Assembly (NCBI GenBank): GCA_964542585.1
Contig: CAZIUI010000002.1
Coordinates: 12,117 to 76,116 of the forward strand
Source: an uncultured Sphingobacteriales bacterium
GTDB lineage: Bacteria; Bacteroidota; Bacteroidia; CAILMK01; CAYYUA01
Direction of reading: 5' to 3'
DNA length: 64,000 bases
In this document: positions 16,776 through 48,746 of the stretch, one piece after another
How positions within the stretch are numbered: the stretch's first letter is position 1
Layout of the letters: every line of letters starts with the position of its first letter
Made by a program: the position numbers and the translations under genes
The notes under the pieces: model-generated
The model's database searches: none
What the model was told of the DNA's origin: nothing
The model's input: the letters and a program-made list of their open reading frames with translations, nothing else

Positions 16776-16850
16776 AACTGGTAATTTTTTATGCAGTGGA
16801 ATCCGACCCCTTGATTCCGCCGAATTGTGGAATCAAAGACTGCTAAAAGT

Positions 16851-19298
16851 ATGCGTTTCTTTTTGATTACCTTAATCCTCCTTATCACTGTTCCATTTGC
16901 ATCTAGGGCACAGCACACCATTTCCGGAACCGTTAGGGAGCAAGCTTCTGAACAAAGCCTAAAAGGCGCTAATGTCCGCTTAAAGCCGGGTTACCAAGGA
17001 GCTGTTACCCGAAAGGATGGTAGCTTCAAGCTATCCGGACTGGATAAAGGTTCCAGAACGCTGATTGTAACATATCTTGGCTACCAGCCTGATACGCTCA
17101 ACCTGAACCTCGACAGCGATAAGACTTTAAACATCAGGCTTCAAAAGCGGACATACCAGGAAGATGAGGTACTTGTACAAAGTACAAGGGCTGATCGGGG
17201 CACCCCGACTACTTATACCAACGTGGAGAAGGAAATCATTCAAGAAGAGAACACCGGTCGGAACATGCCAGCGCTTCTGGCCAATCAACCCTCTGTAGTC
17301 AGCTCCTCCAATGGCGGAATGGACATTGGTTATACGGACATGCGTATCAGAGGTGTATCTCAGAGCCGGGTTAATGTTACCGTTAATGGGATCCCGTTGA
17401 ATGATGCCGAATCCCAAGGCGTTTTCTGGGTCAATATCCCCGATATAGCTGCTTCTTCAGAAAGTATCCAAATTCAGCGGGGGGTAGGCACTTCTACTAA
17501 TGGTGCCGCAGCATTTGGCGCCACAGTCAACCTGGAAACCAGCGGTTTCAATAAAGAACCTTTTGTTGAGGTCAATAACAGTTTTGGTTCTTTCAGCAGT
17601 ATGCGTAACAATGTTCGTTTTGGCACTGGCCTATTGGATAATAACTGGAGTTTCCAGGGAAGTTTCTCGCGCATCGAATCAGATGGCTACATTGACCGCG
17701 CTACTTCGGATCTCAAGTCTTATTACCTCAGCGGTGGTTACTATGGGGAAAAATCAATCCTCAAAGCCATTGTTTTTGGCGGCAGAGAAGAAACCTACCA
17801 GGCCTGGTATGGTGTACCCGAAAGGAAAATGGGGCAATTTGCCAATGGCCAACAATACCTCGGAGACCTGGCTAAGCCTGTTCAAGGGCTCTTTGGCAAT
17901 GATCCGACTATAAATAAAGGCGATCGAACCTATAACTTTTACGATTACGAAAACCAGGTGGATGACTATGGGCAAGACCATTACCAGCTACACCTTTCTC
18001 ATGAGTTTAGTGAAGTCATCACTGCGAATGCTGCATTGCATTACACTTATGGGCGAGGTTTCTTTGAACAATTCCGCGAACAAGCTTCCCTCCAACGTCA
18101 CCAGATCCAACCCGTAAGGCTTGGAGATTCAACGATAAGCACTTCAGACCTTGTGCGAAGGCGGTGGCTGGATAACCATTTTTATGGCGGCACCTTTTCC
18201 ATCAACTATGACAACAACAAACGCTTAAATGCCGTCATTGGAGGAGCCTGGAACCAGTATGAAGGTGACCACTTTGGGAAATTACGGTGGGTTCGCTTTG
18301 CCGGTAACAGCGAAATTGGTGATAAATTTTATGACAACACCGGGAAGAAACGGGATTTCAACATTTATGGGAAGGTCAATTACCAACTAACCACTTCCCT
18401 TTCAGGCTTTGTGGACCTGCAATACCGGGGTGTCCATTATGACGTTGATGGGATGGATCTTGGCCAAAAATCCTTGTATGTGACCGATAATCTGGGCTTC
18501 TTCAACCCCAAAGTAGGACTGGATTACCGCTACAACAGCCGTAACAGCTTTTACGTCTTTTTTGGTATGGGTAACCGGGAACCCACTCGGAATGATTACA
18601 TCGATGCATCGCAGGGGCAATCTCCTCAGCATGAAAGTCTTTATAACGGAGAAGCCGGCTACCAGTATCAGGATAACACCAAGCGCCTAAAGGTCAACGC
18701 CTACTACATGCGTTATCGCAATCAATTAGTCAATACAGGTGAGGTGAATGATGTGGGCGCTAACATCCGAACGAACGTGGACCATAGCTACCGGGCTGGT
18801 TTGGAATTCATAGGCGCTATTCAGCTCGGTAAGCAATGGCAATGGCAAGGCAATGCCACCTTTAGCCGGAATCGAATCTTGAACACTGATTACAAAGTGG
18901 ATGGTGAGCTTGAAAAAAGTTTCGAGTCCACACCTATTGCTTTTTCGCCATCTGTGATAGCAGCGAGCCAATTCCGGTTTCAGCCTTTTAAAGGATTTGA
19001 AGCATCCCTCCAAAGTAAATACGTAGGGGAGCAGTATTTAGACAACACCGGGTCTGAAAGCCGAAAAATCCAGGATTACCTGCTTAACAACCTTCGCCTG
19101 TCCTATACGCTCAATCAATGGGCTGTTTTCGATCAGGTTAAGGCTCAGCTAGATGTGAATAACCTGCTAAACGTTCGGTACGCCAATGATGGTTACACTT
19201 TTGCGGCCCGCGCAGAATCGGGTGAGGTCAATAACTTCAACTTCTTTTATCCACAGGCAGGAAGGAACTTCATGGCATCTCTAAAACTGGGCTTTTAA
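16851..19298 (+). CDS. TonB-dependent outer-membrane receptor, probably a thiamine-related substrate receptor
   Basis: A signal peptide MRFFLITLILLITVPFASRAQ is followed by a carboxypeptidase-regulatory-like domain (ISGTVRE...GANVRL), a plug domain and a 22-strand barrel ending in an aromatic residue (...LKLGF). The ORF-track start at 16827 uses GTG; the ATG at 16851 gives a clean signal peptide. The TPP riboswitches lie upstream. Confidence 0.85.
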   Translation: MRFFLITLILLITVPFASRAQHTISGTVREQASEQSLKGANVRLKPGYQGAVTRKDGSFKLSGLDKGSRTLIVTYLGYQPDTLNLNLDSDKTLNIRLQKRTYQEDEVLVQSTRADRGTPTTYTNVEKEIIQEENTGRNMPALLANQPSVVSSSNGGMDIGYTDMRIRGVSQSRVNVTVNGIPLNDAESQGVFWVNIPDIAASSESIQIQRGVGTSTNGAAAFGATVNLETSGFNKEPFVEVNNSFGSFSSMRNNVRFGTGLLDNNWSFQGSFSRIESDGYIDRATSDLKSYYLSGGYYGEKSILKAIVFGGREETYQAWYGVPERKMGQFANGQQYLGDLAKPVQGLFGNDPTINKGDRTYNFYDYENQVDDYGQDHYQLHLSHEFSEVITANAALHYTYGRGFFEQFREQASLQRHQIQPVRLGDSTISTSDLVRRRWLDNHFYGGTFSINYDNNKRLNAVIGGAWNQYEGDHFGKLRWVRFAGNSEIGDKFYDNTGKKRDFNIYGKVNYQLTTSLSGFVDLQYRGVHYDVDGMDLGQKSLYVTDNLGFFNPKVGLDYRYNSRNSFYVFFGMGNREPTRNDYIDASQGQSPQHESLYNGEAGYQYQDNTKRLKVNAYYMRYRNQLVNTGEVNDVGANIRTNVDHSYRAGLEFIGAIQLGKQWQWQGNATFSRNRILNTDYKVDGELEKSFESTPIAFSPSVIAASQFRFQPFKGFEASLQSKYVGEQYLDNTGSESRKIQDYLLNNLRLSYTLNQWAVFDQVKAQLDVNNLLNVRYANDGYTFAARAESGEVNNFNFFYPQAGRNFMASLKLGF

Positions 19299-29652: not shown

Positions 29653-30162
29653 ATGGCTTCAGAGGGGAAGACAGAAGGTAAATTGAGCCTTAGCAACGGA
29701 ACCCTTCAACAATCAGTTGGTATCGTTACGGCCCGTTGGAATGAAGAGGTGACGGAAGCGCTTAGACTGGGTGCTTTGAACAAGCTCTACGAATTCCACA
29801 TATTTTCGGAATCTATTCATGATCACTCAGTACCTGGTTCTTTTGAATTGCCTCTGGGTGCTCAATTTCTAGCCGAAAATACTCGTGTAAGCGGAATTGT
29901 GGCTATTGGATGTCTTATTCAAGGTGAGACTCCTCATTTTGATTACATCGCTCACGCTGTCACGCATCAACTAAGCCAGTTAAACCTTTATTACCACCTT
30001 CCGATTAGCTTTGGAGTTTTGACGGTTAACAACCAATCACAAGCTAAAGCCCGTGCAGGAGGGCAAGCTGGTAACAAGGGAGCTGAAGCCACGGAAGCCA
30101 TGTTAGAAATGATGGAGTTTCGTCAGTCATTCCGAATTAAGAAACAACAGCCCGGATTTTAG
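29653..30162 (+). CDS. ribH: 6,7-dimethyl-8-ribityllumazine synthase
   Basis: VGIVTARWNEEVTEALRLGA and HFDYIAHAVTHQL are diagnostic for RibH. Confidence 0.88.
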   Translation: MASEGKTEGKLSLSNGTLQQSVGIVTARWNEEVTEALRLGALNKLYEFHIFSESIHDHSVPGSFELPLGAQFLAENTRVSGIVAIGCLIQGETPHFDYIAHAVTHQLSQLNLYYHLPISFGVLTVNNQSQAKARAGGQAGNKGAEATEAMLEMMEFRQSFRIKKQQPGF

Positions 30163-33100
30163 TTAAAAATCGAGCCCCAGAGAGAGGTAAAACTTACCCT
30201 TATTTTTAACCAGGTTATTCTCGACACCCCACGCATAATCCATTCTTACAAAATAGCCTAGTAAGTTAGTACGAATACCAAATCCATAGCCGGCTACAAA
30301 CGGGTTACTTAAATTGATAATTGAAATTTCCAAAGGTCCCCTGTTTATAGTTTCTTCATTAAGCGCATTGTTTTTCTTAAATGGATTAAGTCCAGTCCAG
30401 GCCGACCCGATATCGCCAAAAGCAATAAGTTGGAAATTTTTAAAGAATGGCGAAATGACCGGCTTGTTATTGAACATTCGGAATAGCGGGATTCTTAATT
30501 CACTGTTAAATAAGCTGTAGGAATTACCATTGCGAATATTTTGGTCAAACCCCCGCATGTTGGTGGCAGGCGATTTATAAACGTAGTTTTGTTCATTAGA
30601 AACATCCACCTCATCGTTAAATTGGGGGAAGAGCCAATTATCGGTACCTCCCATAAAATATACGACTTTAGCTTGCCCAAAAGATGAGGCAAAAGATAGC
30701 CTATTCGCAAGAATCATATCCCGGAAAATGGGTATGTAATTCCTGAAATCTCCGCCAATAACTCCAAAGGACGTCTTCTCATCGGCAAAACCTTTCAAAT
30801 TAAAGGCCCGATAACCAGATGCGTAGAGCTTGAATCGGGTTCCACTTTTGGTATTCTTTCCAATATCAAGCGTGTTGTCAAATACATATTCAAAATCAAC
30901 GCCCAGCCAGTTTTGGGGATCATTAGGTTCCTCAAGGGTTCGCCTTTCAGAGGATAAGGTGATGTTGTTGTCGCGCCTAGCAAATACATCTCCTTTAATA
31001 GAGGTCACTTCATTAAACGGCCATTTTAAGCTGTACCTGATCTCATATGAGGTTTCCTGAACCTGCCTTCGGTTACCTTGCTGTTTTTTCTCCCCGTGCC
31101 TGAAAAAAGTCCATTTTTTATCCAGGCGCTGCTTAAGATTTTGATAACGCATGAAATAATCAGCACCTTGTAAATTACCCAATATTCGGAAGCCACCAGT
31201 TATCCGGTAGTCCTGAAAAAGATCACTGACCCCCATTTTGGTCATAGCATTTAAAACGGGGTTGTAGACAGATGACTCCGGATTTTCTTGATTATAGGGT
31301 AAATAACGAGTGTTGATAATGCTGTTATCAAGTTGGCTTTGCAGATAATTAGGCGTAAAGGACAGTTCGTAACTGCGTGCTCGCCCTAGCGAAGGCCTTT
31401 TACCAGTGTTGTTTTCTTTGGATTTTTGGTCTTTAATGGCCTTTGGCTTTTCGGCTTGCTTTTGCTGGTTATCAAATTCACTCTGGAAATAATAGTCGTT
31501 AATGTCGACTTTTTCAGTGGTGTCCTGTTCTCCTTTTGATGGTTTAACATCATTACTTGTACTAGCTTGCGGGCTATTACTGAACTTGGCAGCAACTAAA
31601 GGGCTCTCAATACGCTTTCGGTTATGATCCCTCAAAACACTGCCGTATCCTGTCATAGTAAGGTTTGTTGCTTTAGCGGGTGCACTATCCGGTAAAGGAT
31701 AATGGGCCATGCGGTATTTACCATTGACCTTGTAAAATTCTGTAATGCGCTTTTTTCTATGGTCAATCTGGTAATCCCGAATAGATCGCCTGCGGTTAGT
31801 AAGGGTGTAAGTGTAAGCCGTGTCTTTGTAATAGAAATTCGTATCCACAAACCGAAGCCCTGTATCCGCAAGGGCATAACGCGGGAAAACTAAATCCGAT
31901 GAGTCTTTCTTACTGAACCGAAATGTGTCATTAGGAAATTGCGCTGAATCTTTGTAGCCAACTGTTATCTGAGAATACTGAAATAAACTATCCAGACGAG
32001 TTGCGCTGCGGTTAGTAACACCATTACGCGTAGTCAGGTATGATAGATAGCTTGTATCGTATGCATTGGGCTTAAACTCATCGATAAGGGGTGTGTAGGT
32101 CAGCCTCTGCAACTCATTTCCCTGTTCACGATATTTGTAGTAGAAGATGTCAAAGCTGGTATTAAAGCCTGTTAAAGCATTGCCGCGCCTTCTTCTTCGC
32201 CTTTTAATTGTATCATTGTACCTGTTTGAACTGAACACCAAAGCTTTACCATCAGGGGTGAATTGCGGATGCAAGTCATCAAATGGATCACGCGTGATGG
32301 GACGCATGTTATTGGTCTGCCAATTAAACAGGTAAATATCCGACCTGCCATTGTCAATAGCAGACAAAGCTAAATAGTTGCCTCTCGGACCATAGTTCAT
32401 GTCCGTGATCTTTTCCAACCGGAAGTTTTTTCGGCGGCTTTCGATTTCATCCTCGTCTACATTGTATTGCTTGAAGACAACAATATCCTTTTCGTTATCG
32501 ACTATCATGAGTTGGGGACGCTGGGGATGCCATGCTATTAAAGGATAATTGTAATCCCGCTCAAGCACTTGCGCACGATAACCTTCCCGGTAAATTTTTT
32601 CACGATCACCGGTTTTAGTGTTATACAACCATACTTTTTTACGCCCCTGATTGTTCGTTACATAGGCTAATTGCTCTCCTTGAGGACCTAATTTGGCGGA
32701 TGTAACCTTGCTTTTATGAAAAGCATCAGGCGTTTTAACAAGATTCGCTTGCGAGGGTGCTTTTTCTAAGGGCCGTTGGTTTTCCTCAAATTTTCTGCGA
32801 TAATACCGGTACCATTCTTCATAGAGTTCATTGTAATCCTTCCCAAGCACGAAAGCGAAACCACTTTCTAAACTTTTGTTGACTTTGTTGAGGTAAAGGA
32901 TATTAGAAATAGAGCTCTTTCCGTAAGAAGTGGCAATATACCGCCAGATTAATTGGCTTATAAATACTTTCTCCTCCTTATTCAGTTGTTGAAACTTGCT
33001 GTATTTACCTGAAAGTATACCATCCCGGAAATTTGATAAATCTTCTTGAGATAAGGGATTTCCAAGGTAATCAGCTAACCCCTGCAAGTACCAATCTGGT

Positions 33101-33675
33101 AAATTGAGTAATGTTGAGTTTTGCACACGATCCTGAATGCCTCCTCCATAAAGCATTTCATTAATCAGAACTCTTGCTATTGACTCACGAATCGTATTAA
33201 GAAAATCGAAATGGTTGCCATTATAGTAAACAAAAGCATGGTTATCTACAATGGGTGTTACACCATTGGGATCATCTTTCTTGGCTGAATAGCCGATGTT
33301 GGTTTGTCTTAGGTCAGCATAAGAGTTGTAAACTATGAGCTTGAGCCGGCTTTTAGCACGGTAATCCAAGCGATCTTGAAGTTTTTTGAGGTATTGAGTA
33401 GCGTGACGCCCAGCAAATCGCGCAAGGTTTCTACCGCCAGTGTAAAAGTAAATATCAAACGCTTCTGCCTTGTAGAACCGCCAGTCAAACTCTTTATGCT
33501 GGACCCGATTCCTTCCAAACCTTATATCAGTCCCTTGTGCCTGAACACCATGAGATAACCATAAGCCAGCCATGGCTACAAAAATTAGAATCCCTCCATA
33601 TTTAGCGGCAGCGGCCCGGGTATTATTTGTATGTCTTTTCACAGCCTTTAATAACATTTCAGGTGCTTTCAGCAA
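30163..33675 (-). CDS. Large outer-membrane protein with a signal peptide, WD40-like PD40/TolB-type beta-propeller repeats and a C-terminal Omp85/bacterial-surface-antigen-like beta-barrel
   Basis: The product is 1170 aa with a signal peptide ...LWLSHGVQAQG. PD40-like repeats include DPFDDLHPQFTPDGKALVFSSNRY. The C-terminus has NMRGFDQNIRNGNSYSLFNSELRIPL ... YLSLGLDF, ending in an aromatic residue, which is a typical Omp85 barrel terminus. Confidence 0.55.
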   Translation of the reverse strand: MLKAPEMLLKAVKRHTNNTRAAAAKYGGILIFVAMAGLWLSHGVQAQGTDIRFGRNRVQHKEFDWRFYKAEAFDIYFYTGGRNLARFAGRHATQYLKKLQDRLDYRAKSRLKLIVYNSYADLRQTNIGYSAKKDDPNGVTPIVDNHAFVYYNGNHFDFLNTIRESIARVLINEMLYGGGIQDRVQNSTLLNLPDWYLQGLADYLGNPLSQEDLSNFRDGILSGKYSKFQQLNKEEKVFISQLIWRYIATSYGKSSISNILYLNKVNKSLESGFAFVLGKDYNELYEEWYRYYRRKFEENQRPLEKAPSQANLVKTPDAFHKSKVTSAKLGPQGEQLAYVTNNQGRKKVWLYNTKTGDREKIYREGYRAQVLERDYNYPLIAWHPQRPQLMIVDNEKDIVVFKQYNVDEDEIESRRKNFRLEKITDMNYGPRGNYLALSAIDNGRSDIYLFNWQTNNMRPITRDPFDDLHPQFTPDGKALVFSSNRYNDTIKRRRRRRGNALTGFNTSFDIFYYKYREQGNELQRLTYTPLIDEFKPNAYDTSYLSYLTTRNGVTNRSATRLDSLFQYSQITVGYKDSAQFPNDTFRFSKKDSSDLVFPRYALADTGLRFVDTNFYYKDTAYTYTLTNRRRSIRDYQIDHRKKRITEFYKVNGKYRMAHYPLPDSAPAKATNLTMTGYGSVLRDHNRKRIESPLVAAKFSNSPQASTSNDVKPSKGEQDTTEKVDINDYYFQSEFDNQQKQAEKPKAIKDQKSKENNTGKRPSLGRARSYELSFTPNYLQSQLDNSIINTRYLPYNQENPESSVYNPVLNAMTKMGVSDLFQDYRITGGFRILGNLQGADYFMRYQNLKQRLDKKWTFFRHGEKKQQGNRRQVQETSYEIRYSLKWPFNEVTSIKGDVFARRDNNITLSSERRTLEEPNDPQNWLGVDFEYVFDNTLDIGKNTKSGTRFKLYASGYRAFNLKGFADEKTSFGVIGGDFRNYIPIFRDMILANRLSFASSFGQAKVVYFMGGTDNWLFPQFNDEVDVSNEQNYVYKSPATNMRGFDQNIRNGNSYSLFNSELRIPLFRMFNNKPVISPFFKNFQLIAFGDIGSAWTGLNPFKKNNALNEETINRGPLEISIINLSNPFVAGYGFGIRTNLLGYFVRMDYAWGVENNLVKNKGKFYLSLGLDF

Positions 33676-33677
33676 TC

Positions 33678-35780
33678 CTAATATCCGCCGTAATATTTCC
33701 TAAAGAACCATTCCCCTCCTAATAATAGCACTAAAGCCCAAAACAACATTTGCGCGTGTATTAATTCCTTTAGTTCGTATTCCCGCTTTGAGGTTCGTTT
33801 CAATTGTCCCGACTTTTCTAGCTTATCAGGCAAATTATTTATTTCCCGTGCATAAACAAGCTTACCATTGTTTTCGCTTGCCAGGTTTTTTAACAATGCA
33901 TGATTTGCAACAGTAGTTAGGTGTTCCTTATTAACAGGTTTAACTACAAAAGAACCCGATCTTCTAAAAGTCTCATCACCATAAGAAGCTTCAGCTGTAA
34001 AGTCATATTTACCAACAGGTAGATAACCAACTTCAACTTGATACCCGTCTTTAGATGAGGTAAAATCAAAATCATAAGTATCCCCTTTTTGGTTACTAAT
34101 AGCAATACTTATCGTTGCATCTCTCACAGGTTCATAACTCTCATTGTAAAATTCAGCTTGAAAACGAATCCGTTCATTTTCTAAGTATTGATTCTGCTTA
34201 TTCACTAACCGGAATCGCCTTTTTTGCGCATCTACCGCTAAGTACTGAACCGATTTTGCGAGGAAATTTGGGATTGCCTCATGCTGATCTAAAACCCGGT
34301 ATTCATTTAAATACCATCGCCATAAACCAGTGGCCGTAAAAATCCCAACTTTATGATTGGGCTTTGTAAGGAAAGTGAACAAGGGCTTTTGGCTAATAAC
34401 CTCTCCAATTTTTTGCTGGAGCAAAGTATTACTGGGAGCATTTAAACGGTAAGATGCAAGTGGTGAATTTACCGGGGGAAGTTGCGGTAAGAGCTTTTTC
34501 AAGGACTTGCTGATACTGAAGGCATTGAATCCTTCTTTCAAATCTGCCTGTACCTGATTGGCATTGCTGCTTTTGCGCTCAATGGCAAAACCTAGGTTGA
34601 GTTGGTTTAAAGCCGAGAAAGCCGTTTTATTGCCCAATATATAAAGGGTCGGTATGGCTTTTTTATTCGCTCGCCTTAGCAATTCACGACCATTTCCACC
34701 TGAGGCAGGAAGCTGGTGAAAAACAAAAACATCATACCCTTCCATTTCTTCGTTGGCCTTTTGCCATTGATCCAAAGTAAAGGTACTAACAGTGTACCGC
34801 TTACGGCTTTTCAGTGCCTGCTTGATAACTCCAACATCAGGATGGGGATGTTGGGCAATAACAGCAACTTTCCTTTTGCTTTTTAAGGCTTCTATATAAA
34901 AAGAACGGGTATTATTGGCCTGGCTAACTTCTCCATCCTCAGTTTCAAGTATTGCTTTAAACGATTTTAATCCGGGTTCTTCAATCCTGAAAAAAGCCTT
35001 TATAGTGGTATCCAGATCATCGGAACCCGACCTTATACTTTGCTGAAAAACCTGTTTTCCTGCTTTTTTTATCGTAAGATCTGTCGATTTACCCTTGAAG
35101 GATTCTGCCTGGACCTGAATTTCCACCGGAAATTTACTTCCAGCGTATACAATATCGTTGTGTTGAATCCTACGGATAAGCCAATCTTTTGGGGGAATCG
35201 TGTCACCCATAGCAATTGTATAAATGGGCGATTGCAGTTTACGAGCAACACTCATAGGTGGTTGCCCTTGATTGTATATACCATCGCTGGCAAGGATAAT
35301 AGCACCAAGGTTTCGATTGTAATAATCATCATAAATTTTTTCCAGCGGCTTGGACAGATTGGATGCCCTTGCCTCATAGGTTAGCTCTTTCTCATTGGAC
35401 ACTTGGCTTCCATAGGCGTAGGTTTTAACTTGATAGGAATTTTCAAGGCGGGAGACAAGTCTTTTCATGGCTTTTGTAAAAGTGTCCCGGTAATAAGTAG
35501 AATCCCTATTGAGAAGTATTGATGCGGAATTATCCATTGCAACGGCAACTACTGGCTCTTGGACCTCTTTGTAGTAGGATTTGATAAAAGGTGATAGTAG
35601 CAGAAAAGCTATTAAGCTGACGGACAAGAACCGGAAAGTGGCTAATAGCCAATTGGGAAATGACCAGAAGCGGTTCCGCTCTCCAAAATACCGATTGTAA
35701 TACATTAAAAAGGCGTAAACTGCGCCAGCCAACAGGCAAAAAGCAATAAAATAAACGGGGTAAGCAAACTGTAGAGACAT
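33678..35780 (-). CDS. Membrane-anchored VWA-like domain protein (two N-terminal TM helices and a DxSxS MIDAS-like motif)
   Basis: The 700-aa product has N-terminal TM helices and then VVAVAMDNSASI, which resembles a BatA-like VWA start. There is a 2-nt gap to the downstream 1170-aa gene, so this is probably one operon. Confidence 0.5.
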   Translation of the reverse strand: MSLQFAYPVYFIAFCLLAGAVYAFLMYYNRYFGERNRFWSFPNWLLATFRFLSVSLIAFLLLSPFIKSYYKEVQEPVVAVAMDNSASILLNRDSTYYRDTFTKAMKRLVSRLENSYQVKTYAYGSQVSNEKELTYEARASNLSKPLEKIYDDYYNRNLGAIILASDGIYNQGQPPMSVARKLQSPIYTIAMGDTIPPKDWLIRRIQHNDIVYAGSKFPVEIQVQAESFKGKSTDLTIKKAGKQVFQQSIRSGSDDLDTTIKAFFRIEEPGLKSFKAILETEDGEVSQANNTRSFYIEALKSKRKVAVIAQHPHPDVGVIKQALKSRKRYTVSTFTLDQWQKANEEMEGYDVFVFHQLPASGGNGRELLRRANKKAIPTLYILGNKTAFSALNQLNLGFAIERKSSNANQVQADLKEGFNAFSISKSLKKLLPQLPPVNSPLASYRLNAPSNTLLQQKIGEVISQKPLFTFLTKPNHKVGIFTATGLWRWYLNEYRVLDQHEAIPNFLAKSVQYLAVDAQKRRFRLVNKQNQYLENERIRFQAEFYNESYEPVRDATISIAISNQKGDTYDFDFTSSKDGYQVEVGYLPVGKYDFTAEASYGDETFRRSGSFVVKPVNKEHLTTVANHALLKNLASENNGKLVYAREINNLPDKLEKSGQLKRTSKREYELKELIHAQMLFWALVLLLGGEWFFRKYYGGY

Positions 35781-35965
35781 GCTAAGGTTTCTAACTCATT
35801 ATTGAATCGTTTGCACTCTAGGGTTTCGTACCTTCGTCAATAAACTTTCAAAAATAGCAATAATGGTTCCATCCTATGGTTTGGCAATCAATCGCCATTA
35901 GGAAAATTAAACATCTTGGTGTAATTAAATTATTAATCGATTGCTTTGTAACATAAGGGGTAAAT

Positions 35966-39794: not shown

Positions 39795-40592
39795 ATGATA
39801 TCAAAAAAAACCCTTGTAGCCATTTGCCTTTTTGTTTTTTCATTAAACTTAGCTCGCTCACAGGATATTGAAGCTGGAATAATGGTTGGCCCCTCCAACT
39901 ACAGTGGAGATTTAACAGCAGATAGACTTACCTTTTCGGAAACTCAGCCTGCTGCCGGTCTTCTTTTCAGGTACTACTTTTCTCCTAAGTTTAATTTAAA
40001 AGCTTCTTTGTCTTATGCCAGGGTTTCCGGTGATGATGAGAATTATGACGATATAAATTTTCGGGAAAAAAGAAATTTAAGTTTTAAAAGCAACATTTTT
40101 GAGGCCTCCATTCAAGGAGAATATAATATACTACCCTATATAAGCAATACCAAAGAATACAATTGGTCTCCCTATGTTTTCGGCGGTGTTGCCCTTTATC
40201 GTTTTAATCCGAAAGCGGATTTTCAAGGTTCTACAGTAGACCTAGCAGATTTTACTACCGAAGGTGAAGATTATAGCCTAACACAACTGGCCATTCCATT
40301 TGGCGTAGGGATAAAATATAGCATTGGCAATCGATGGAATATTGGCTTAGAAATCGGTGCGCGTAAGCTTTTCACTGATTATTTGGATGATGTGAGTGAT
40401 GAGTATGTTCAGCTTAGTGGTCAAGCCGCTGACATTGCCGATCGTTCAGATGAGTTAGTCCAATTTAACCAAGAACAATTTTCACCTGGTAATACCCGGG
40501 GAAATTCAAGTAACAAGGATTGGTATGGGATAGCTGGCTTTACCATCACTAAGACCTTCCGTAGCAGTGGATGTACAAAAGATTTTTATTAA
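39795..40592 (+). CDS. DUF6089-like outer-membrane beta-barrel protein, paralogue 1 of 5
   Basis: A signal peptide is followed by the shared motifs GPSNYSGDL, ARVSGDDENY, RNLSFKSNIFEASIQGEYN, LTQLAIPFGVGIKYSI and FTDYLDDVS, and a C-terminal Cys-containing tail (SSGCTKDFY). Confidence 0.7.
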   Translation: MISKKTLVAICLFVFSLNLARSQDIEAGIMVGPSNYSGDLTADRLTFSETQPAAGLLFRYYFSPKFNLKASLSYARVSGDDENYDDINFREKRNLSFKSNIFEASIQGEYNILPYISNTKEYNWSPYVFGGVALYRFNPKADFQGSTVDLADFTTEGEDYSLTQLAIPFGVGIKYSIGNRWNIGLEIGARKLFTDYLDDVSDEYVQLSGQAADIADRSDELVQFNQEQFSPGNTRGNSSNKDWYGIAGFTITKTFRSSGCTKDFY

Positions 40593-40632
40593 TTTTCGTC
40601 CTTTAATTACCTTAAGGATGACGCTGCTACTT

Positions 40633-41460
40633 ATGAAAAGACTTGTAATAATTCTAGGGCTGTGCCTCCCAATATCAGGAGCTGCGCAAGATTGGGAATT
40701 TGGAATATTTGCAGGTGCTCCGTTTTACACAGGTGAGCTTACCAATGATAAGCCTATTGTTCTAAGCGAAACCAAGCCGGGTTTTGGAGGTTTCGCCAGG
40801 TATAATGTTAACAAGTACTTCACTATCAAATCAAACGTTTATTACGGGACCATCAGTGGTGATGATGCTAATGCTTCATCCCGTTCGGATCGTATTCGTA
40901 ACCTTAGTTTTCGATCCGACATTCTCGATTTAGGTGTGCAAGGAGAATTTAATTTTTCTGGTTTTAATACCTTGAAAGAAAACCTAAGGTCCTCCTTTTA
41001 TGGCCTTTTAGGTGTTTCTGTTTTCAGATTCAATCCTGAAGCTAAATTCAATGGGAAGTGGTATGAACTTCAACAGTTAGGAACGGAAGGGCAGGGGACA
41101 GCTAAATTCAACGAGCGAGATCCTTACGCATTGACCCAAATAGCCATTCCTTTCGGAGTCGGGTTTAAGCACGCAATTAATAAGCATTGGGTTATTGGAT
41201 TTGAAGTAGGTTTCAGGTACACTTTCACTGATTACATAGATGATGTGAGCAAAACTTATGTTAGCCCGAGCATTCTAAGAGGGACCAACGGTGAAATTTC
41301 TCCACAGCTTTCCAACAGGACAGGGGAAGTCCTGGAGGATGGTCGTAAAGAATTAAATTCTCAAGACCAAAGAGGTGATCCCACCACCAATGATGCCTAT
41401 CATTTTGTTGGTTTAACGCTTTCTTACACCGTGATCCCAGACAATTGTTTTAAATTCTAA
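40633..41460 (+). CDS. DUF6089-like outer-membrane beta-barrel protein, paralogue 2 of 5
   Basis: The same motif set is present (GAPFYTGELT, GTISGDDANAS, RNLSFRSDILDLGVQGEFN, LGTEGQGT, LTQIAIPFGVGFKHAI, FTDYIDDVS, C-terminal DNCFKF). The ORF track starts at 40567 and overlaps paralogue 1. I chose the ATG at 40633 because it gives the signal peptide MKRLVIILGLCLPISGAAQ. Confidence 0.65.
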   Translation: MKRLVIILGLCLPISGAAQDWEFGIFAGAPFYTGELTNDKPIVLSETKPGFGGFARYNVNKYFTIKSNVYYGTISGDDANASSRSDRIRNLSFRSDILDLGVQGEFNFSGFNTLKENLRSSFYGLLGVSVFRFNPEAKFNGKWYELQQLGTEGQGTAKFNERDPYALTQIAIPFGVGFKHAINKHWVIGFEVGFRYTFTDYIDDVSKTYVSPSILRGTNGEISPQLSNRTGEVLEDGRKELNSQDQRGDPTTNDAYHFVGLTLSYTVIPDNCFKF

Positions 41461-41496
41461 TCCAGGGAATTGGTTGCTTATTTAAATTAGTGTACT

Positions 41497-42327
41497 ATGA
41501 AAAAAAACTTGTTACTCCTAGTTTTATTCTTAGCGATTCCATTTTTTGGCCTTAGCCAGCATTGGTCCTTTGGCATTTTTGCGGGAGGATCCAATTATAA
41601 TGGAGAACTGAATGCAGCCCAGCCGGTTTTTTTGGAAGAAACGCACCCTAGTTTTGGAGTTTTAGGACGTTACAGTTTCTCGCCTTACGTAAGCGCAAAA
41701 GGTAGCCTAACATACGGCCGCATAAGTGGGAACGATGAGAACAATTCAGCCCCAAGCCGTGTGCAAGGGAGAAATTTAAGCTTTCGATCAGATATTTTTG
41801 AGGCCAGCCTTCAAGCTGAAATAAATATATTTGGTTTTGACCCAACTGACAATGATCATCATTTTGCCTTATATCTTTTGGGAGGGATTTCGGTCTACCA
41901 TTTCAATCCCCAATCAAAATATCAAGGAGAATGGTATGATTTACAAAATCTAGGAACTGAAGGTCAGGGAACTGACCGGTTCCCTAATAGAGAAAAATAT
42001 AGCCTGACTCAGGTGTCGTTTCCCGCAGGAGGCGGTATCAAGTATGCAATAAATCACAATTGGAGTTTAGGTATTGAATTTGGGGCAAGAAAAACCCTTA
42101 CGGATTACCTGGATGATGTCAGCCGAACCTACGCACCGCAGAGCGTTTTTGACGGCCCGGATGATCCCGCTTATCGGCTTTCTAACAGGACTTGGGAAAG
42201 CTTTGATGAAGCCAAAGATTATGGGGCTAATAACAGAAGGGGGAACCCGGAAACATCAGATTGGTACATGTTTGGTGGTATAACCTTGACCTACACTATA
42301 GCCGGCCCTCATTGTCAAGGTTTTTAA
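41497..42327 (+). CDS. DUF6089-like outer-membrane beta-barrel protein, paralogue 3 of 5
   Basis: The signal peptide is MKKNLLLLVLFLAIPFFGLSQ. Motifs GGSNYNGELN, GRISGNDENNS, RNLSFRSDIFEASLQAEIN, LGTEGQGT, LTQVSFPAGGGIKYAI and LTDYLDDVS are present, with a C-terminal PHCQGF. Confidence 0.7.
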   Translation: MKKNLLLLVLFLAIPFFGLSQHWSFGIFAGGSNYNGELNAAQPVFLEETHPSFGVLGRYSFSPYVSAKGSLTYGRISGNDENNSAPSRVQGRNLSFRSDIFEASLQAEINIFGFDPTDNDHHFALYLLGGISVYHFNPQSKYQGEWYDLQNLGTEGQGTDRFPNREKYSLTQVSFPAGGGIKYAINHNWSLGIEFGARKTLTDYLDDVSRTYAPQSVFDGPDDPAYRLSNRTWESFDEAKDYGANNRRGNPETSDWYMFGGITLTYTIAGPHCQGF

Positions 42328-42411
42328 TAAACTATCTAAAATCAAGTCTTATGTTATTTTAACTTTTTTTTGAATATCATCACTTGGCTTTTACATAAAA
42401 GTTAAAATAAA

Positions 42412-42449
42412 AAAGGCTTTGTTTATTTTCATTGAAAAGCCTTTTCTTT
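42412..42449 (+). terminator. Intrinsic terminator inside the paralogue array, between copies 3 and 4
   Basis: A perfect 9-bp stem AAAGGCTTT / AAAGCCTTT encloses a 14-nt loop and is followed by TTCTTTG. Confidence 0.55.
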
Positions 42450-42477
42450 GTATTAAAGGAACAAAGGCTTTCAATTT

Positions 42478-43311
42478 ATGAGGCGCATATGCTTTATTTT
42501 TCTCCTCATTGTAATGCCATGCATCACCAAAGGGCAAAATTGGGAATTGGGTGCTACTATAGGCGGTGCCAACTATAATGGTGAGCTTGCACCTGTTGAT
42601 CCTGTCGTTCTCAAAGAAACCAAACTATCAATTGGTGCTTTTGCGAAGTATTCCATTTCAGAAAGGATAAAGGTGAAAGGCACCATTACCTACGCTACTA
42701 TTAGTGGGGATGATGCAAATTACAACACACCAAGGCTCCGCAAAAGGCGAAACCTGGACTTTAAGTCTCCCATTTTTGAAATAGGAGTTCTAGGTGAATA
42801 CCACTTTTGGAAGATCAATGAAAGTTTTCGTAAGCCAACCACTTCCTTTTATGGTGTCACGGGTATAGCGTTGTTCAATTTTAATCCTAAAGCAAAATTC
42901 GAAGGAGAATTAGTAGAACTTCAACCCCTAGGGACCGAAGGACAAGGAACCTCAGCATTTCCGGATCGTGAAAAGTATAGCTTAACCCAAATCTCCATTC
43001 CTATTGGGGCTGGTATAACTCACTCATTAAGCGACCACTTAAATATTGGGGTGGAAGTAGCCTTTAGGAAGACATTTACCGACTACTTGGATGATGTTAG
43101 CAAAACGTATGCTCCGAAGGATGCTTTGATAAGTCGTTATGGGGAAATCTCTTACCGGCTTTCGAATAGAACCTGGGAAACGAACGATCAGGCACTTGAT
43201 AAAGCGAACTCACGCAGGGGCAACCCAGAAACGGAAGACTGGTACTACTTTGGAGGTATAACTTTATCCTACACCTTTAAAGAAAACAAATGTCCGGGGT
43301 TCGGTAAGTAA
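42478..43311 (+). CDS. DUF6089-like outer-membrane beta-barrel protein, paralogue 4 of 5
   Basis: A signal peptide and motifs GGANYNGELA, ATISGDDANYN, RNLDFKSPIFEIGVLGEYH, LGTEGQGT, LTQISIPIGAGITHSL and FTDYLDDVS are present, with a C-terminal NKCPGFGK. Confidence 0.7.
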   Translation: MRRICFIFLLIVMPCITKGQNWELGATIGGANYNGELAPVDPVVLKETKLSIGAFAKYSISERIKVKGTITYATISGDDANYNTPRLRKRRNLDFKSPIFEIGVLGEYHFWKINESFRKPTTSFYGVTGIALFNFNPKAKFEGELVELQPLGTEGQGTSAFPDREKYSLTQISIPIGAGITHSLSDHLNIGVEVAFRKTFTDYLDDVSKTYAPKDALISRYGEISYRLSNRTWETNDQALDKANSRRGNPETEDWYYFGGITLSYTFKENKCPGFGK

Positions 43312-43393
43312 AATAATTCAAAAGCAATTCCAGAACGGGAAGGATATTATCAAGCGTACAATAAGAAGCGGGGATAAGCAGTTTTTAACAAGT

Positions 43394-44206
43394 ATGAGAT
43401 TCACCTTTTTGTACCTGTTAACTTTGCTCCTAAGCATGGGATGTTTTAGCTATGTTCAAGGGCAAAATTGGGAAGGTGGTCTGTTTGTAGGAGCAAGTAA
43501 TTACAAAGGCGACCTTGCCCCAAATGTTGTCCCTGGTGAAACTCACCCTGCTATTGGAGTTTTTGTAAAGCGAAACCTTAGTCCATTCTTCTCCTTTGCG
43601 CTTACGGCAAAACAAGGGACCATTTCTGGAGACGATGAAAATTTTAGTCATTTAGAAGATCGAAACCTTTCTTTCGAATCTAATCTTACGGAAGTTAGCG
43701 CTATTATTGAATTTAATTTTTTTCCATTTCTGAAAGGATTGGGAGCTGATCAATTTACGCCCTACGTCTACTCCGGTTTTGCTTTTTATCGTTTTGAACC
43801 AACGACCACTATTAACGGTCAAACTTTTGATTTAAAGGATCTTAGGACAGAAGGACAGGGAACCAGAAGTGATGGCCCTGGTAATTACAGTAAATTGCAA
43901 CCAGCTATTCCCATTGGAGGAGGATTTAAACTACAGCTCAACCGCAGGCTAAACTTGACTCTTAAGCTTGGTTATCGGGCAACTTTTACAGATTTCCTAG
44001 ATGACGTAAGTACTGACTATCCTTCAAAAGACATATTAGCTAGTGCTAAAGGAGACCGGGCTGTTAGCCTAAGCGATAGAAGTGTTGATGAATGGTACAC
44101 CGGAAAAGGAAAACAGCGCGGAAATTCCCAAAATAACGACTGGTACCTATTTACGGGTTTTACTTTTTCATATAACATCAAAAACCCGGAATGCTATGAG
44201 TTTTAA
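43394..44206 (+). CDS. DUF6089-like outer-membrane beta-barrel protein, paralogue 5 of 5, the most divergent
   Basis: A signal peptide and motifs GASNYKGDLA, GTISGDDENFS, RNLSFESNLTEVSAIIEFN, RTEGQGT and FTDFLDDVS are present, with a C-terminal PECYEF. Confidence 0.65.
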   Translation: MRFTFLYLLTLLLSMGCFSYVQGQNWEGGLFVGASNYKGDLAPNVVPGETHPAIGVFVKRNLSPFFSFALTAKQGTISGDDENFSHLEDRNLSFESNLTEVSAIIEFNFFPFLKGLGADQFTPYVYSGFAFYRFEPTTTINGQTFDLKDLRTEGQGTRSDGPGNYSKLQPAIPIGGGFKLQLNRRLNLTLKLGYRATFTDFLDDVSTDYPSKDILASAKGDRAVSLSDRSVDEWYTGKGKQRGNSQNNDWYLFTGFTFSYNIKNPECYEF

Positions 44207-44226
44207 ACACAAATTTCGAGGTTTCT

Positions 44227-44967
44227 ATGACTGATAAGCGGGAGGAAATCCGTTATGATCATTTGCCTAAGCACATAGCTATCATAATGGATGGCAATGG
44301 AAGGTGGGCCAAAGAGCAAGGGGAAAATAGAATTTTCGGTCATAATCATGGAGTAACAGCAGTTAGAAATACAGCCGAGGCATGTGCTGAAGTAGGGATT
44401 GATTATTTAACCTTGTATGCGTTTTCCAGCGAGAACTGGAACCGGCCTGAACAGGAGGTGAATGCCTTGATGGATCTTTTGATCCAAACTATCCGCAGCG
44501 AAATGAAAACCTTACAGGATAACAACATTTCGCTTTCTGCCATTGGAAATTTAAACCAACTGCCAGAAGCTTGTCATACCAGTTTAGAAAGTGCTATTAA
44601 AGAAACCCAAGACAATACTGGACTAACCCTAAACCTTGCCCTTAGCTACAGTGGGAAATGGGATATAACAAAAGCAACAAAACAAATTGCCGGAGCAGTC
44701 AAAAGAGGGGAAATAGAACCAGATCAGATCGATGAATCGCTTATTGAGCAACACCTGACTACAGCTAATGTGCCAGATCCAGCTCTCCTGATTCGTACAA
44801 GCGGGGAAACCAGGGTTAGTAACTTTTTACTCTGGGAATTGGCTTATACAGAGTTATACTTTTTTAAGAAAAACTGGCCCGAATTTGAAAAAGCAGACCT
44901 TTTTCAAGCTATAATAGACTACCAAAACCGGGAACGCCGTTTTGGAATGATCAGCGAACAAATATAA
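44227..44967 (+). CDS. uppS: Isoprenyl transferase (undecaprenyl-diphosphate synthase)
   Basis: HIAIIMDGNGRWAKEQG and the C-terminal RFG motif are present. Confidence 0.9.
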   Translation: MTDKREEIRYDHLPKHIAIIMDGNGRWAKEQGENRIFGHNHGVTAVRNTAEACAEVGIDYLTLYAFSSENWNRPEQEVNALMDLLIQTIRSEMKTLQDNNISLSAIGNLNQLPEACHTSLESAIKETQDNTGLTLNLALSYSGKWDITKATKQIAGAVKRGEIEPDQIDESLIEQHLTTANVPDPALLIRTSGETRVSNFLLWELAYTELYFFKKNWPEFEKADLFQAIIDYQNRERRFGMISEQI

Positions 44968-44975
44968 CTAACCAG

Positions 44976-47483
44976 ATGATGAAGGCCGCGCACGGAATCC
45001 TGATAACTATTAGCTTTTGTTTTTTAGTATGTATACAACCTGATTTTGCAAAAGCTCAGGATGACTCTTCTGAAGTTAACAATGATATCATCCTGGATTA
45101 CCAAACACCTGCCACCTATAACCTCGCAGGAATATCGATAAAAGGTAACGGCCGCATAAACCGGAATGTAATAATTGCCTACACAGGTTTGCAAGTGGGC
45201 CAAGAAATAAAAGTTCCCGGTGATGAAATAGCCGATGCTATCAAAAATTTATGGAAGCAAGATTTATTCAAAGATGTAGCCATCAAAATCAATAAAGTTG
45301 ACCAAATAGAAGACAAAATATACTTACTTATAGACCTTAAGACCAGGCCGCGGCTTCGCCAGTTTAAAATAAATGGTGTTTCTCAAAATGAAGCCTCTGA
45401 TATCCGTGAGAGGATTAAACTTGTACGGGGCGATATTATCACTAAACAATTGATAAGGTCCATTAAAGAAAAGATTAAAAGTTATTTCAACAGTGAGGGA
45501 TACATGAGTGCGGAGATTTCAATAAGGGGTAAGGATGAAAGTTTGTTTTCCTCTCCTAATAGCACAATGATCATTGATATCAATAAAGGAGAAAAAGTTA
45601 AAATTAAAGATATAACATTTTCAGGTAATCAAGCTTTTGATGATGGTAAGTTAAGGAGTCAACTTGAAAACACGAATAGAAAAACTATCCTCAACCTCTT
45701 TAAGTCATCGAAATTTATACCTTCAAAATATAAAAAAGATAAAGAAAAATTAATCAAATTTTACCAAAACCATGGTTACAGGGACGCTAAAATTGTAAGC
45801 GACAGCACATATCTGGTAGAAGATGATAGAGTAAAAATTCATATTGATCTAAAGGAGGGAAATCAATACTATTTTGGCGATATAACTTTTCAAGGTAATA
45901 CGGAATACAGTTCGAAATTTCTCAGTTCCGTGCTTAACATTGAAAAAGGAGAGGTTTACTCGCCTAAAAAGCTCCAAACGAACCTACGATTCAATAAGAG
46001 AGGCTTAGATATCTCCTCTTTATACATGGACAATGGTTTCTTGTTTTTTAACGTCAAGCCCGTTGAAACCAACCTTTACCAAGATACGGTAGATATTCAG
46101 ATTCGTATCAAGGAAGGTAAACAAGCTACCATTGATGAGATTACCGTTAGTGGGAACACCAAAACCAGTGACCACGTAATTTTAAGGGAATTAAGAACAA
46201 GACCTGGAGATAAGTTTAGCCGCTCTGATATTATCCGATCAAGAAGAGAACTTTCGAGGTTAGGATATTTCGATGCCAAAAAAATTAGTATAACTCCTAA
46301 ACCAAACCCTGAAGAAGGAACAGTTGATATCAACTACGATGTAGTAGAAAAACCGAGTGATCAGCTACAGTTACAAGGAGGCTGGGGTGCTGGCCAATTA
46401 GTAGGTAGCGTAGGTATTCAATTCAACAACTTCTCCTTAGATAAAATCGATAACCTGGACGCCTGGCGTCCATTGCCGGCTGGAGATGGCCAAAAATTAA
46501 GCCTAAGGGCGACTTCCAATGGACCTCGTTACAGTTCCATCAACTTCTCATTCACCGAGCCTTGGTTTGGTGGCCATAAACCTAACTCTTTAACGGTTGG
46601 TGCTTTTTATTCCGTTCAGGCCACAGGTGGCTTCAATAGTTCCAGCAGAAGGTCACTTGAAATCTTGGGGGCTAATATTGGCTTGGGTAAACGCCTCCAA
46701 TATCCCGATAATTATTTCACCCTTAATAACACGTTAGAATTCCAGCAGTATCAGTTAAATGATTACCGAGCCCTTCCCCTGGACTTCACAAATGGCACCT
46801 CGTATACCATTAGCCTTAAGCACAAAATATCCCGTAACTCAGTCAATCGCAAAATTTATCCTACAGCCGGTTCTGAATTTTCGTTATCGCTCAAATACAC
46901 GCCACCGGTTTCAGCTTTTACCAATTTGAACTACAATGAGGTATCAGCCCAGCGTAAGTTTAAGTGGATTGAATTTCACAAATGGAAATTTAAAGCATCT
47001 TACTTCCTTAACTTAGGAGGCGACCTGGTATTAAATCCACGAGCCGATTTTGGTTATCTAGGCTTCTATAACAACGATATTGGGATTACACCTTTTGAAC
47101 GATTTTACGTAGGAGGTGATGGCCTCCAGGGTTTTCAGCTTGATGGCCGAGAACTAATTCGTCTTCGCGGATATCAGCAAGATGCCCTTAGCCCAAGGCA
47201 AGGAGCTAACGTTTTTAACAAGCTTACGATGGAACTCAGGTACCCTGTCATACAAAAAAGATCGGCTACTATTTACTTTTTAGGGTTTTTAGAGGCCGGC
47301 AATAGCTGGTTAGGAATTGATAAATTTACCCCTTCTGAAATTCATCGCTCTGCAGGAGGTGGTATAAGGGTTTTCTTACCTATGTTTGGGCTTTTAGGAG
47401 TTGATTGGGGTTATGGTTTTGACTATGAAAATGTACAGAGCAAACCGGGCCAGATACACATTTCAATTGGCCAAAGGTTTTAA
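44976..47483 (+). CDS. bamA: Outer-membrane protein assembly factor BamA
   Basis: The product is 835 aa with a signal peptide, POTRA repeats and an Omp85 barrel ending ...HISIGQRF. It directly follows uppS, as in the conserved cluster. Confidence 0.88.
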   Translation: MMKAAHGILITISFCFLVCIQPDFAKAQDDSSEVNNDIILDYQTPATYNLAGISIKGNGRINRNVIIAYTGLQVGQEIKVPGDEIADAIKNLWKQDLFKDVAIKINKVDQIEDKIYLLIDLKTRPRLRQFKINGVSQNEASDIRERIKLVRGDIITKQLIRSIKEKIKSYFNSEGYMSAEISIRGKDESLFSSPNSTMIIDINKGEKVKIKDITFSGNQAFDDGKLRSQLENTNRKTILNLFKSSKFIPSKYKKDKEKLIKFYQNHGYRDAKIVSDSTYLVEDDRVKIHIDLKEGNQYYFGDITFQGNTEYSSKFLSSVLNIEKGEVYSPKKLQTNLRFNKRGLDISSLYMDNGFLFFNVKPVETNLYQDTVDIQIRIKEGKQATIDEITVSGNTKTSDHVILRELRTRPGDKFSRSDIIRSRRELSRLGYFDAKKISITPKPNPEEGTVDINYDVVEKPSDQLQLQGGWGAGQLVGSVGIQFNNFSLDKIDNLDAWRPLPAGDGQKLSLRATSNGPRYSSINFSFTEPWFGGHKPNSLTVGAFYSVQATGGFNSSSRRSLEILGANIGLGKRLQYPDNYFTLNNTLEFQQYQLNDYRALPLDFTNGTSYTISLKHKISRNSVNRKIYPTAGSEFSLSLKYTPPVSAFTNLNYNEVSAQRKFKWIEFHKWKFKASYFLNLGGDLVLNPRADFGYLGFYNNDIGITPFERFYVGGDGLQGFQLDGRELIRLRGYQQDALSPRQGANVFNKLTMELRYPVIQKRSATIYFLGFLEAGNSWLGIDKFTPSEIHRSAGGGIRVFLPMFGLLGVDWGYGFDYENVQSKPGQIHISIGQRF

Positions 47484-47503
47484 TACCCTTAAATACGATC
47501 CCA

Positions 47504-48100: not shown

Positions 48101-48235
48101 TTATTAGATGCAAAAGATGATACGCAGGGGGTGAAAAAACTACTTGTAGGGGTTTGACTGACAATTAGATTTATAGCTTTTTTTACCTTTGAAATCACAT
48201 TAATATTTTCAACCTAAAATAATCGCAATACAAGC

Positions 48236-48739: not shown

Positions 48740-48746
48740 TTAACTG

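Follow-up and report, generated by a model that had tools for sequence, protein, structure and literature searches.

The 64,000-nucleotide (nt) window analysed here (contig CAZIUI010000002.1 of GenBank assembly GCA_964542585.1, positions 12,117 to 76,116, from an uncultured Sphingobacteriales bacterium; all coordinates below are those of the window) encodes between positions 30163 and 35780 a large PD40-Omp85 protein and, upstream of it, a 700-aa protein. The large protein (1164 aa) was assigned to the WD40/PD40-like subfamily within the Omp85 superfamily, and is composed of a signal peptide, a gluzincin-like domain, a TolB/PD40 propeller, a disordered linker and a predicted 16-strand barrel. 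We propose, with a probability of about one half, that its periplasmic module would take over the client-binding role of the POTRA domains and feed a client to a barrel that would itself be functional. The pairing of the two genes was found to be confined to one small clade; the 700-aa protein is independently and widely conserved and is no obligate partner of the Omp85 protein.

The Omp85/TpsB superfamily has been split into ten subfamilies, one of which was named "WD40-like" (Heinz and Lithgow 2014, PMC4104836). The 62 members in the published list of this subfamily carry PF07676 (PD40) repeats, with the barrel model PF01103 detectable or not, and their best Phyre2 matches were to the TolB propeller, to the BamA/TamA barrel and, at the N-terminus, to aminopeptidases (Table S3 of PMC4104836). 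The subfamily has since been flagged as an intriguing target (Hanson et al., PMC11116518). The protein encoded in the window has the same architecture throughout: PD40 repeats N-terminal to the barrel, no POTRA, a putative aminopeptidase-like N-terminus, a barrel of the kind often missed by PF01103, and TolB (propeller) and BamA/TamA (barrel) as best structural matches. What is added here is the degeneration of the HExxH motif and a clade-specific linkage to the 700-aa gene. A first-pass annotation of this DNA had considered the gene pair not to have been functionally described. This holds for function only; the architecture of the PD40-Omp85 protein was catalogued in 2014.

Homology searches returned more than 1180 homologues of the large protein and more than 758 of the 700-aa protein, in both cases with many full-length ones, and because of these numbers the existence of both genes is judged to be far beyond chance. 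The homologues of the 700-aa protein were all named hypothetical and none carried a Pfam domain; for the two proteins together the names were "hypothetical", "PD40 domain-containing" and "Tol biopolymer transport system component", and the named sources were nearly all Bacteroidota metagenome-assembled genomes (MAGs); for the large protein, every named relative came from Bacteroidota or from a closely allied MAG. Among clusters formed at 50% identity, 29,936 representatives matched the large protein at E<=1e-3, a number that fell to 1822 when E<=1e-30 was required. In the best 150 of these 1822 clusters nearly all matches were full-length (1000-1300 aa), while a few shorter entries (e.g. P0459, 826 aa; P0471, 859 aa) were without the N-terminus.

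Domain architecture of the PD40-Omp85 protein

The structure of the large protein was modelled with AlphaFold2 (AF2) on an alignment of 67 homologues, giving a predicted local distance difference test score (pLDDT) of 81 and a predicted template modelling score (pTM) of 0.78; conservation counts given below for this protein refer to the same alignment. Pfam and NCBIfam scans revealed PD40, weak WD40-type propellers and TolB, and nothing else. The following features were identified.

30163..33657, minus strand: PD40/WD40-like Omp85 gene, starting with the ATG at 33657 (1164 aa) or, alternatively, with a TTG at 33675 (1170 aa); open reading frame (ORF) and 100% identical database protein P0001
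33538..33657, minus strand: type I signal peptide, residues 1-40 (GVQA before the cleavage site, QG after it), without a lipobox; read from the sequence, with a helix and then a low-pLDDT stretch in the AF2 model; a lipobox-like motif occurs in 2 of the 67 homologues
32764..33522, minus strand: catalytically degenerate domain of gluzincin (peptidase MA)-like type at the N-terminus; weak Peptidase_MA_2 matches and motif columns
33148..33162, minus strand: degenerate HExxH position (N-E-M-L-Y); column counts in 67 homologues
31696..32706, minus strand: beta-propeller of TolB/PD40 type with six blades and a long hairpin insertion (residues 318-654); Pfam, NCBIfam, PDB profile, Foldseek and AF2 strands
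31375..31695, minus strand: flexible K/E/T/S/D-rich linker, residues 655-761; low pLDDT, no POTRA
30166..31374, minus strand: predicted 16-strand Omp85-type beta-barrel, residues 762-1164, ending in LDF; AF2 strand count and Foldseek
30547..30555, minus strand: loop-6 RGF motif (R1035-G1036-F1037), conserved in 67/67, 67/67 and 66/67 homologues, respectively
30406..30420, minus strand: FxDxG motif of strand 13 (F1080-G-D1082-I-G1084), with F, D and G each conserved in 67/67

The part between the signal peptide and the propeller had been overlooked by the first-pass annotation. The AF2 model has a helical to mixed domain at residues ~46-298. Weak matches to Peptidase_MA_2 were obtained in 6 of the 18 family members scanned (best E 4.6e-4, under the gathering score), and M4 and M9 were each matched by single members; a PDB profile search with this domain returned nothing. 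The gluzincin pattern HExxH...W..EGLA.Y is mirrored by VLINEMLYGG...LPDWYLQGLADY. In the HExxH columns the residues were N166 (55/67), E or Q at 167 and Y170 (59/67); Q, K or N stood where the third zinc ligand would be expected. Because the first histidine is replaced by asparagine, the second by tyrosine and the glutamate ligand by Q/K/N, the domain is predicted from these columns to be a peptidase-fold module unable to bind catalytic zinc, i.e. a pseudo-peptidase. An active peptidase was rejected as a candidate on account of the absent zinc ligands.

The propeller was identified by several means. Pfam PD40 scored 21.3 bits against a cut-off of 20.9, the NCBIfam TolB model matched at E 1.8e-14, the profile of the 67 homologues matched TolB in the PDB at E 1.8e-10, and Foldseek aligned the model with TolB 7mx5 (E 6.8e-9; root-mean-square deviation (rmsd) 4.5). 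In the AF2 model about 24 strands make up this domain. TolB of the Tol-Pal system, which likewise has a six-bladed PD40 propeller, is the best match of residues ~318-654 in both sequence and fold. TolB is soluble, belongs to the tol-pal operon and has an alpha/beta domain of its own at the N-terminus; the propeller described here has a pseudo-peptidase fused to one end and an outer-membrane barrel to the other. A TolB orthologue was rejected as an identification, the large protein being membrane-embedded, without the TolB N-terminal domain and with neighbours unrelated to tol-pal. The linker that follows the propeller consists of one helix and disorder (pLDDT below 50 at residues 692-753); its length varies between 81 and 149 aa among the homologues and its conservation is low.

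In a Foldseek search of the PDB with the AF2 model, the top 23 matches were BamA barrels (E 1e-10 to 1e-8), followed by TamA, Sam50 and then TolB; across BamA, TamA and Sam50 the E-values were 1e-10 to 3e-8, and the TM-scores were 0.52-0.58 when normalised to barrel-only targets. The barrel is therefore regarded as one of Omp85 type at the level of predicted fold. It is the best-conserved region of the protein, particularly in loop 6 and strand 13, and E1053, R1055 and the terminal D1163 and F1164 are as invariant as the RGF and FxDxG motifs. The latter two correspond to the Omp85 signatures (V/I)RG(F/Y) of loop 6 and (F/G)xDxG of strand 13. This invariance, together with the high conservation of the barrel as a whole, argues that it may serve as more than an anchor.

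The window contains its own BamA (44976-47483, plus strand), which has the same predicted 16-strand barrel and aromatic C-terminal beta-signal. The BamA has about five POTRA domains and is encoded in a uppS-bamA-skp cluster, whereas the PD40-Omp85 protein is without POTRA and its gene stands alone. No match to PF07244 (POTRA) was found in the large protein and no POTRA is present in its AF2 model, while the BamA of the window matches PF07244 at E 2.8e-53. Lack of POTRA is likewise what sets apart the non-POTRA Omp85 subfamilies already published. The first-pass annotation had described the large protein as an Omp85-type barrel with PD40/TolB propeller repeats in place of the POTRA array. This description was borne out by the domain scans and by the predicted structure, and the strings cited in it (NMRGF, ELRIPL and the C-terminal YLSLGLDF) are all present.

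The 700-aa protein and the conservation of the gene pair

The 700-aa protein was also modelled with AF2 (pLDDT 84.6; pTM 0.50). Its features, with those of the region upstream, were as follows (TM, transmembrane; Ig, immunoglobulin).

33678..35780, minus strand: gene for the 700-aa protein, ATG start, putative inner-membrane-anchored periplasmic multidomain protein; ORF
35849..35856, minus strand: candidate -7 promoter motif of Bacteroidota type (TATTTTTG), lying 69 nt upstream of the 700-aa gene; motif scan
35598..35759, minus strand: predicted TM hairpin at the N-terminus (helices 11-27 and 41-61), joined by the basic, putatively cytoplasmic loop NRYFGERNR; AF2, the loop from the sequence
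35196..35588, minus strand: VWA-like alpha/beta domain (residues 65-195) with DxSxS (D83, S85, S87) and SDG (D166-G167); motifs and AF2 beta-alpha pattern
34881..35186, minus strand: first Ig-like (CARDB-like) beta-sandwich; AF2 strand pattern and Foldseek
34221..34874, minus strand: GATase1-like alpha/beta domain (residues ~303-520) with no conserved Cys nucleophile; Foldseek and conservation
33939..34214, minus strand: second Ig-like beta-sandwich (AF2 strands 523-614); AF2, with MG-domain and GH2 Foldseek matches
33693..33752, minus strand: predicted C-terminal TM helix (677-696), followed by the basic tail RKYYGGY; AF2

Three TM helices were predicted (11-27, 41-61 and 677-696) and not two, as had been annotated. 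Based on the positive-inside rule, the bulk of the protein would be periplasmic and anchored at both ends. Near the C-terminus the family shows no variation at E690, W691, R694 and G698, and a small alpha/beta unit lies between the second sandwich and the C-terminal TM helix in the AF2 model. A CARDB domain of ~110 residues (2kl6/3idu) matched the model with target-normalised TM-scores of 0.78-0.84 and an rmsd of 2.3; according to the AF2 strand pattern this match would be to the first rather than the second sandwich. The Foldseek matches of the GATase1-like domain were ADC synthase and a cold-adapted beta-galactosidase. Residues H313, P314, D315, W487 and W489 of this domain are invariant and none of the invariant residues is a cysteine; because no conserved Cys is present the domain is probably non-catalytic.

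The protein had been annotated as beginning with a VWA domain. Positions without variation in the family include D83, S87, D166 and G167, and conservation of S85 is 90% or higher; at the threonine position of the metal ion-dependent adhesion site (MIDAS) the family consensus is T, and the protein of the window has S. Pfam VWA did not match the protein of the window and matched 3 of the 62 family members (best E 8.6e-4), and the NCBIfam BatA/BatB VWA model matched 3 members at E 0.002-0.012. No VWA structure was found among the top 50 Foldseek matches of the model, and a PDB profile search with the family returned nothing. The motifs and the faint profile matches thus weakly suggest a VWA-like assignment: what stands of the annotation is an alpha/beta domain bearing DxSxS (D83-N-S85-A-S87) in a tightly linked protein with a predicted inner-membrane anchor. 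As in the membrane VWA proteins BatA and BatB, TM segments at the N-terminus of the 700-aa protein precede an alpha/beta domain that bears DxSxS...DG. The 700-aa protein differs in that it has no significant VWA or BatA_N match, is not encoded in a moxR-bat operon, and carries in addition the Ig-like and GATase1-like domains and the C-terminal TM anchor.

The interval 30163-35780 consists of exactly two tightly linked minus-strand ORFs, which lie where the first-pass annotation had placed them (30163..33675, 1170 aa from TTG, and 33678..35780, 700 aa). The junction between them reads TAG-ga-TTG...ATG, so the annotated gap of 2 nt applies to the TTG start, but becomes 20 nt with the ATG at 33657, which is the start called in the identical database protein P0001 (1164 aa). 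TAnnTTTG is the -7 promoter consensus of Bacteroidota. Since a motif of this kind precedes the 700-aa gene and a scan between the 700-aa gene and the Omp85 gene found none, co-transcription of the two genes in the source organism is plausible. Over the whole window TAnnTTTG is depleted (38 matches vs 69 +/- 8 expected), which is consistent with selection against spurious promoters. At the downstream end, the stop codons of ribH (plus strand, ending at 30162) and of the Omp85 gene (minus strand, ending at 30163) abut with zero intergenic bases (30160-30165), and therefore any terminator must sit inside the opposing gene. An antisense ORF of 114 aa with a TTG start (35040-35384, plus strand) within the 700-aa gene is most likely spurious.

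Conservation of the pair was surveyed in 80 loci encoding a relative of the Omp85 protein, with one genome per species, and a homologue of the 700-aa protein was sought in each by tblastn. It was found in 2 of the 80 (L002, 57% identity; L078, 76%), in both directly upstream and on the same strand; both loci belong to "Sphingobacteriales" MAGs which are close relatives. Expressed on the loci with at least 2.5 kb of upstream sequence the frequency is 2/61, and on those with at least 6 kb on both sides it is 2/39. One further relative, 51% identical, retains the pair together with the upstream cvpA-pabA-hydrolase-CBS synteny, and in relatives at 40% and 35% identity the Omp85 gene and the 700-aa gene are apart.

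Elsewhere the usual neighbours of the Omp85 gene are a divergent gene for a metallo-beta-lactamase-fold hydrolase (37 loci) and an M20 amidohydrolase gene (35 loci). Neighbour clustering around it yielded housekeeping genes only, namely these two and genes for a small multi-pass membrane protein and ribonucleotide reductase. The 700-aa gene elsewhere adjoins genes for a DUF3108-like protein, an M48 peptidase and PBP1A; in two loci from other Bacteroidota (L082/L083, 7166-11500) the conserved run is DUF3108-like / 700-aa gene / M48 peptidase / (PBP1A). This run hints at an envelope- or peptidoglycan-related role of the 700-aa protein that is independent of the Omp85 protein. Because the pair is absent from most loci and each gene has other neighbours elsewhere, the linkage looks like clade-level synteny and not like a functional module. 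In the 51%-identical relative (L084, 11255-14523) the gliding/type IX secretion genes gldL, gldM and gldN are located ~2 kb downstream of the Omp85 gene, a proximity that is absent from the window and from the other loci and is probably coincidental.

Other genes of the window include a canonical outer-membrane biogenesis cluster (39795-49586, plus strand) with DUF6089 genes, uppS, bamA, two skp/ompH genes and murI, which begins ~4 kb from the upstream end of the pair (35780); the distance to bamA is ~9 kb. Its five tandem DUF6089 genes encode small beta-barrel paralogues, four assigned by Pfam and the fifth (40567-41460) by sequence resemblance only. The bamA product has 835 aa. A hybrid sensor kinase with the domain order PAS-HisKA-HATPase-REC (1129 aa; 19976-23365, minus strand) adjoins a TonB-dependent receptor with a CarboxypepD_reg N-terminal domain (16827-19298, plus strand).

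Proposed role and alternative explanations

The large protein would be exported by Sec and its signal peptide cleaved, after which BAM, the machinery for beta-barrel assembly, would insert the C-terminal 16-strand barrel into the outer membrane, leaving the remainder tethered within the periplasm by a flexible stretch of ~100 residues. There the gluzincin-fold pseudo-peptidase would pack against the six-bladed TolB-type propeller, and together they would bind clients in place of POTRA. Beta-augmentation is the way in which extended strands are bound both by the gluzincin groove and by POTRA domains. Polypeptide segments in extended form, or else a particular envelope partner, may be captured in what was once the peptidase groove and at the mouth of the propeller, and be presented to a barrel which retains the loop-6 RGF / strand-13 FxDxG lock. 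The protein would then act in client insertion or translocation.

A number of observations weigh against this proposal. The assignment of the barrel is based on the predicted fold and on motifs, and homology to Omp85 at the sequence level appears weak: PF01103 did not match the large protein, a PDB profile search with the 67 homologues returned TolB only and not BamA, and an hhalign comparison of the family with an alignment built from the window's own bamA was non-significant (E 0.084, probability 0.7%). In this last comparison the motifs are nevertheless in register, namely loop 6 (RGF with RGY), ELRxP with ELRYP, and FxDxGxAW with FaEaGNSW (in general form RG(F/Y), ELRxP and F-x-(D/E)-x-G-x-(A/S)-W), and the C-termini were also aligned. 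The missing PF01103 match is uninformative in itself: the bona fide BamA of the window misses PF01103 at E<1e-4 too, and for this reason the Pfam barrel model appears insensitive for the source lineage. A precomputed PF01103 match is present in close homologues of that BamA. The conserved neighbours of the Omp85 gene suggest no client or function. In the literature on PD40 with Omp85, TolB-like with Omp85 and surface lipoproteins with Omp85, no functional data on the PD40-Omp85 family were found, and the protein is not involved in two 2025 papers on Bacteroidota BAM structures. In 2024 the WD40-like subfamily was still described as "not well characterised", and PlpD demonstrates that a periplasmic enzyme can be carried on an Omp85 scaffold that has no translocase role (Hanson et al., PMC11116518).

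The last point leads to the main alternative, which we regard as possible but rather unlikely, in which the barrel merely tethers the periplasmic module and nothing crosses the barrel or its lateral gate; the module would act by itself, e.g. by connecting, in a TolB-like manner, to partners that are peptidoglycan-associated or in the inner membrane, or by binding peptides or serving in quality control. PlpD of P. aeruginosa, a patatin-like Omp85 protein, provides the precedent for such reuse of the scaffold, its N-terminal patatin domain having been shown to be periplasmic and the protein to be no translocase (PMC11116518). Like PlpD, the PD40-Omp85 protein joins an Omp85 barrel to a non-POTRA, enzyme-derived N-terminal module; PlpD, however, has one POTRA and an active patatin lipase, whereas the protein described here is without POTRA and has a degenerate peptidase-like domain and an added propeller. 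The lack of POTRA agrees with a tethered module, as do the long flexible linker, suited to a module that reaches out, and the presence of the propeller, since TolB-type propellers are protein-protein interaction platforms in Tol-Pal. What speaks against such a tether is that the barrel shows the highest conservation within the protein, above all in loop 6 and strand 13, and that RGF and FxDxG are invariant, which is unexpected for a passive anchor; the protein also has neither the N-terminal domain of TolB nor tol-pal genes as neighbours. A type V-like arrangement, with the pseudo-peptidase and propeller exported through or alongside the barrel, displayed at the surface, and the linker spanning the pore, would account for a disordered stretch of 81-149 aa immediately before the barrel, and polypeptide translocation is known for Omp85/TpsB members (PMC4104836). 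For PlpD, an N-terminal passenger ahead of a C-terminal Omp85 barrel had likewise been suggested, and this was refuted (PMC11116518). A folded module of ~600 residues with a closed propeller would moreover be a poor substrate for a 16-strand pore with loop 6 locked, and Pfam and Foldseek revealed no homology to TpsA or autotransporter passengers; we consider this arrangement very improbable.

The first-pass annotation had proposed a periplasm-spanning complex of the two proteins, with the propeller as a lid of the barrel. In such a complex the VWA-like protein would bind the PD40-Omp85 protein across the periplasm, and its MIDAS would grip an acidic residue in the linker or propeller. The gap between the genes measures 2-20 nt and holds no promoter-like motif, the pair is retained in relatives down to 51% identity, both proteins have large predicted periplasmic parts, and both families are widespread in Bacteroidota. 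The co-occurrence survey did not sustain the complex: 59 of the 61 testable species-level loci are without the adjacency, which is also absent at 35-40% identity, the 700-aa gene has its own conserved neighbours, and the VWA assignment is itself weak. Wherever the pair is kept, as in the 51% relative, the flanking synteny is kept with it, so that shared ancestry explains the linkage. On balance the complex is improbable. A wider version of the proposed role, in which the family would be a Bacteroidota-wide POTRA-less translocase or insertase for non-BAM clients (e.g. surface-exposed lipoproteins), with the pseudo-peptidase and propeller as receptor and the VWA-like protein as a dedicated trans-envelope partner in the source clade, is a long shot.

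The gene pair reveals no new kind of system. The window adds a clean example of the PD40-Omp85 family, the loss of metal ligands across the family, and a VWA-like neighbour gene that is not a conserved partner. To our knowledge, all functionally studied Omp85 proteins use POTRA domains. That a large conserved family should have exchanged these for what appears to be a dead peptidase and a TolB-type propeller poses a question for outer-membrane biogenesis.

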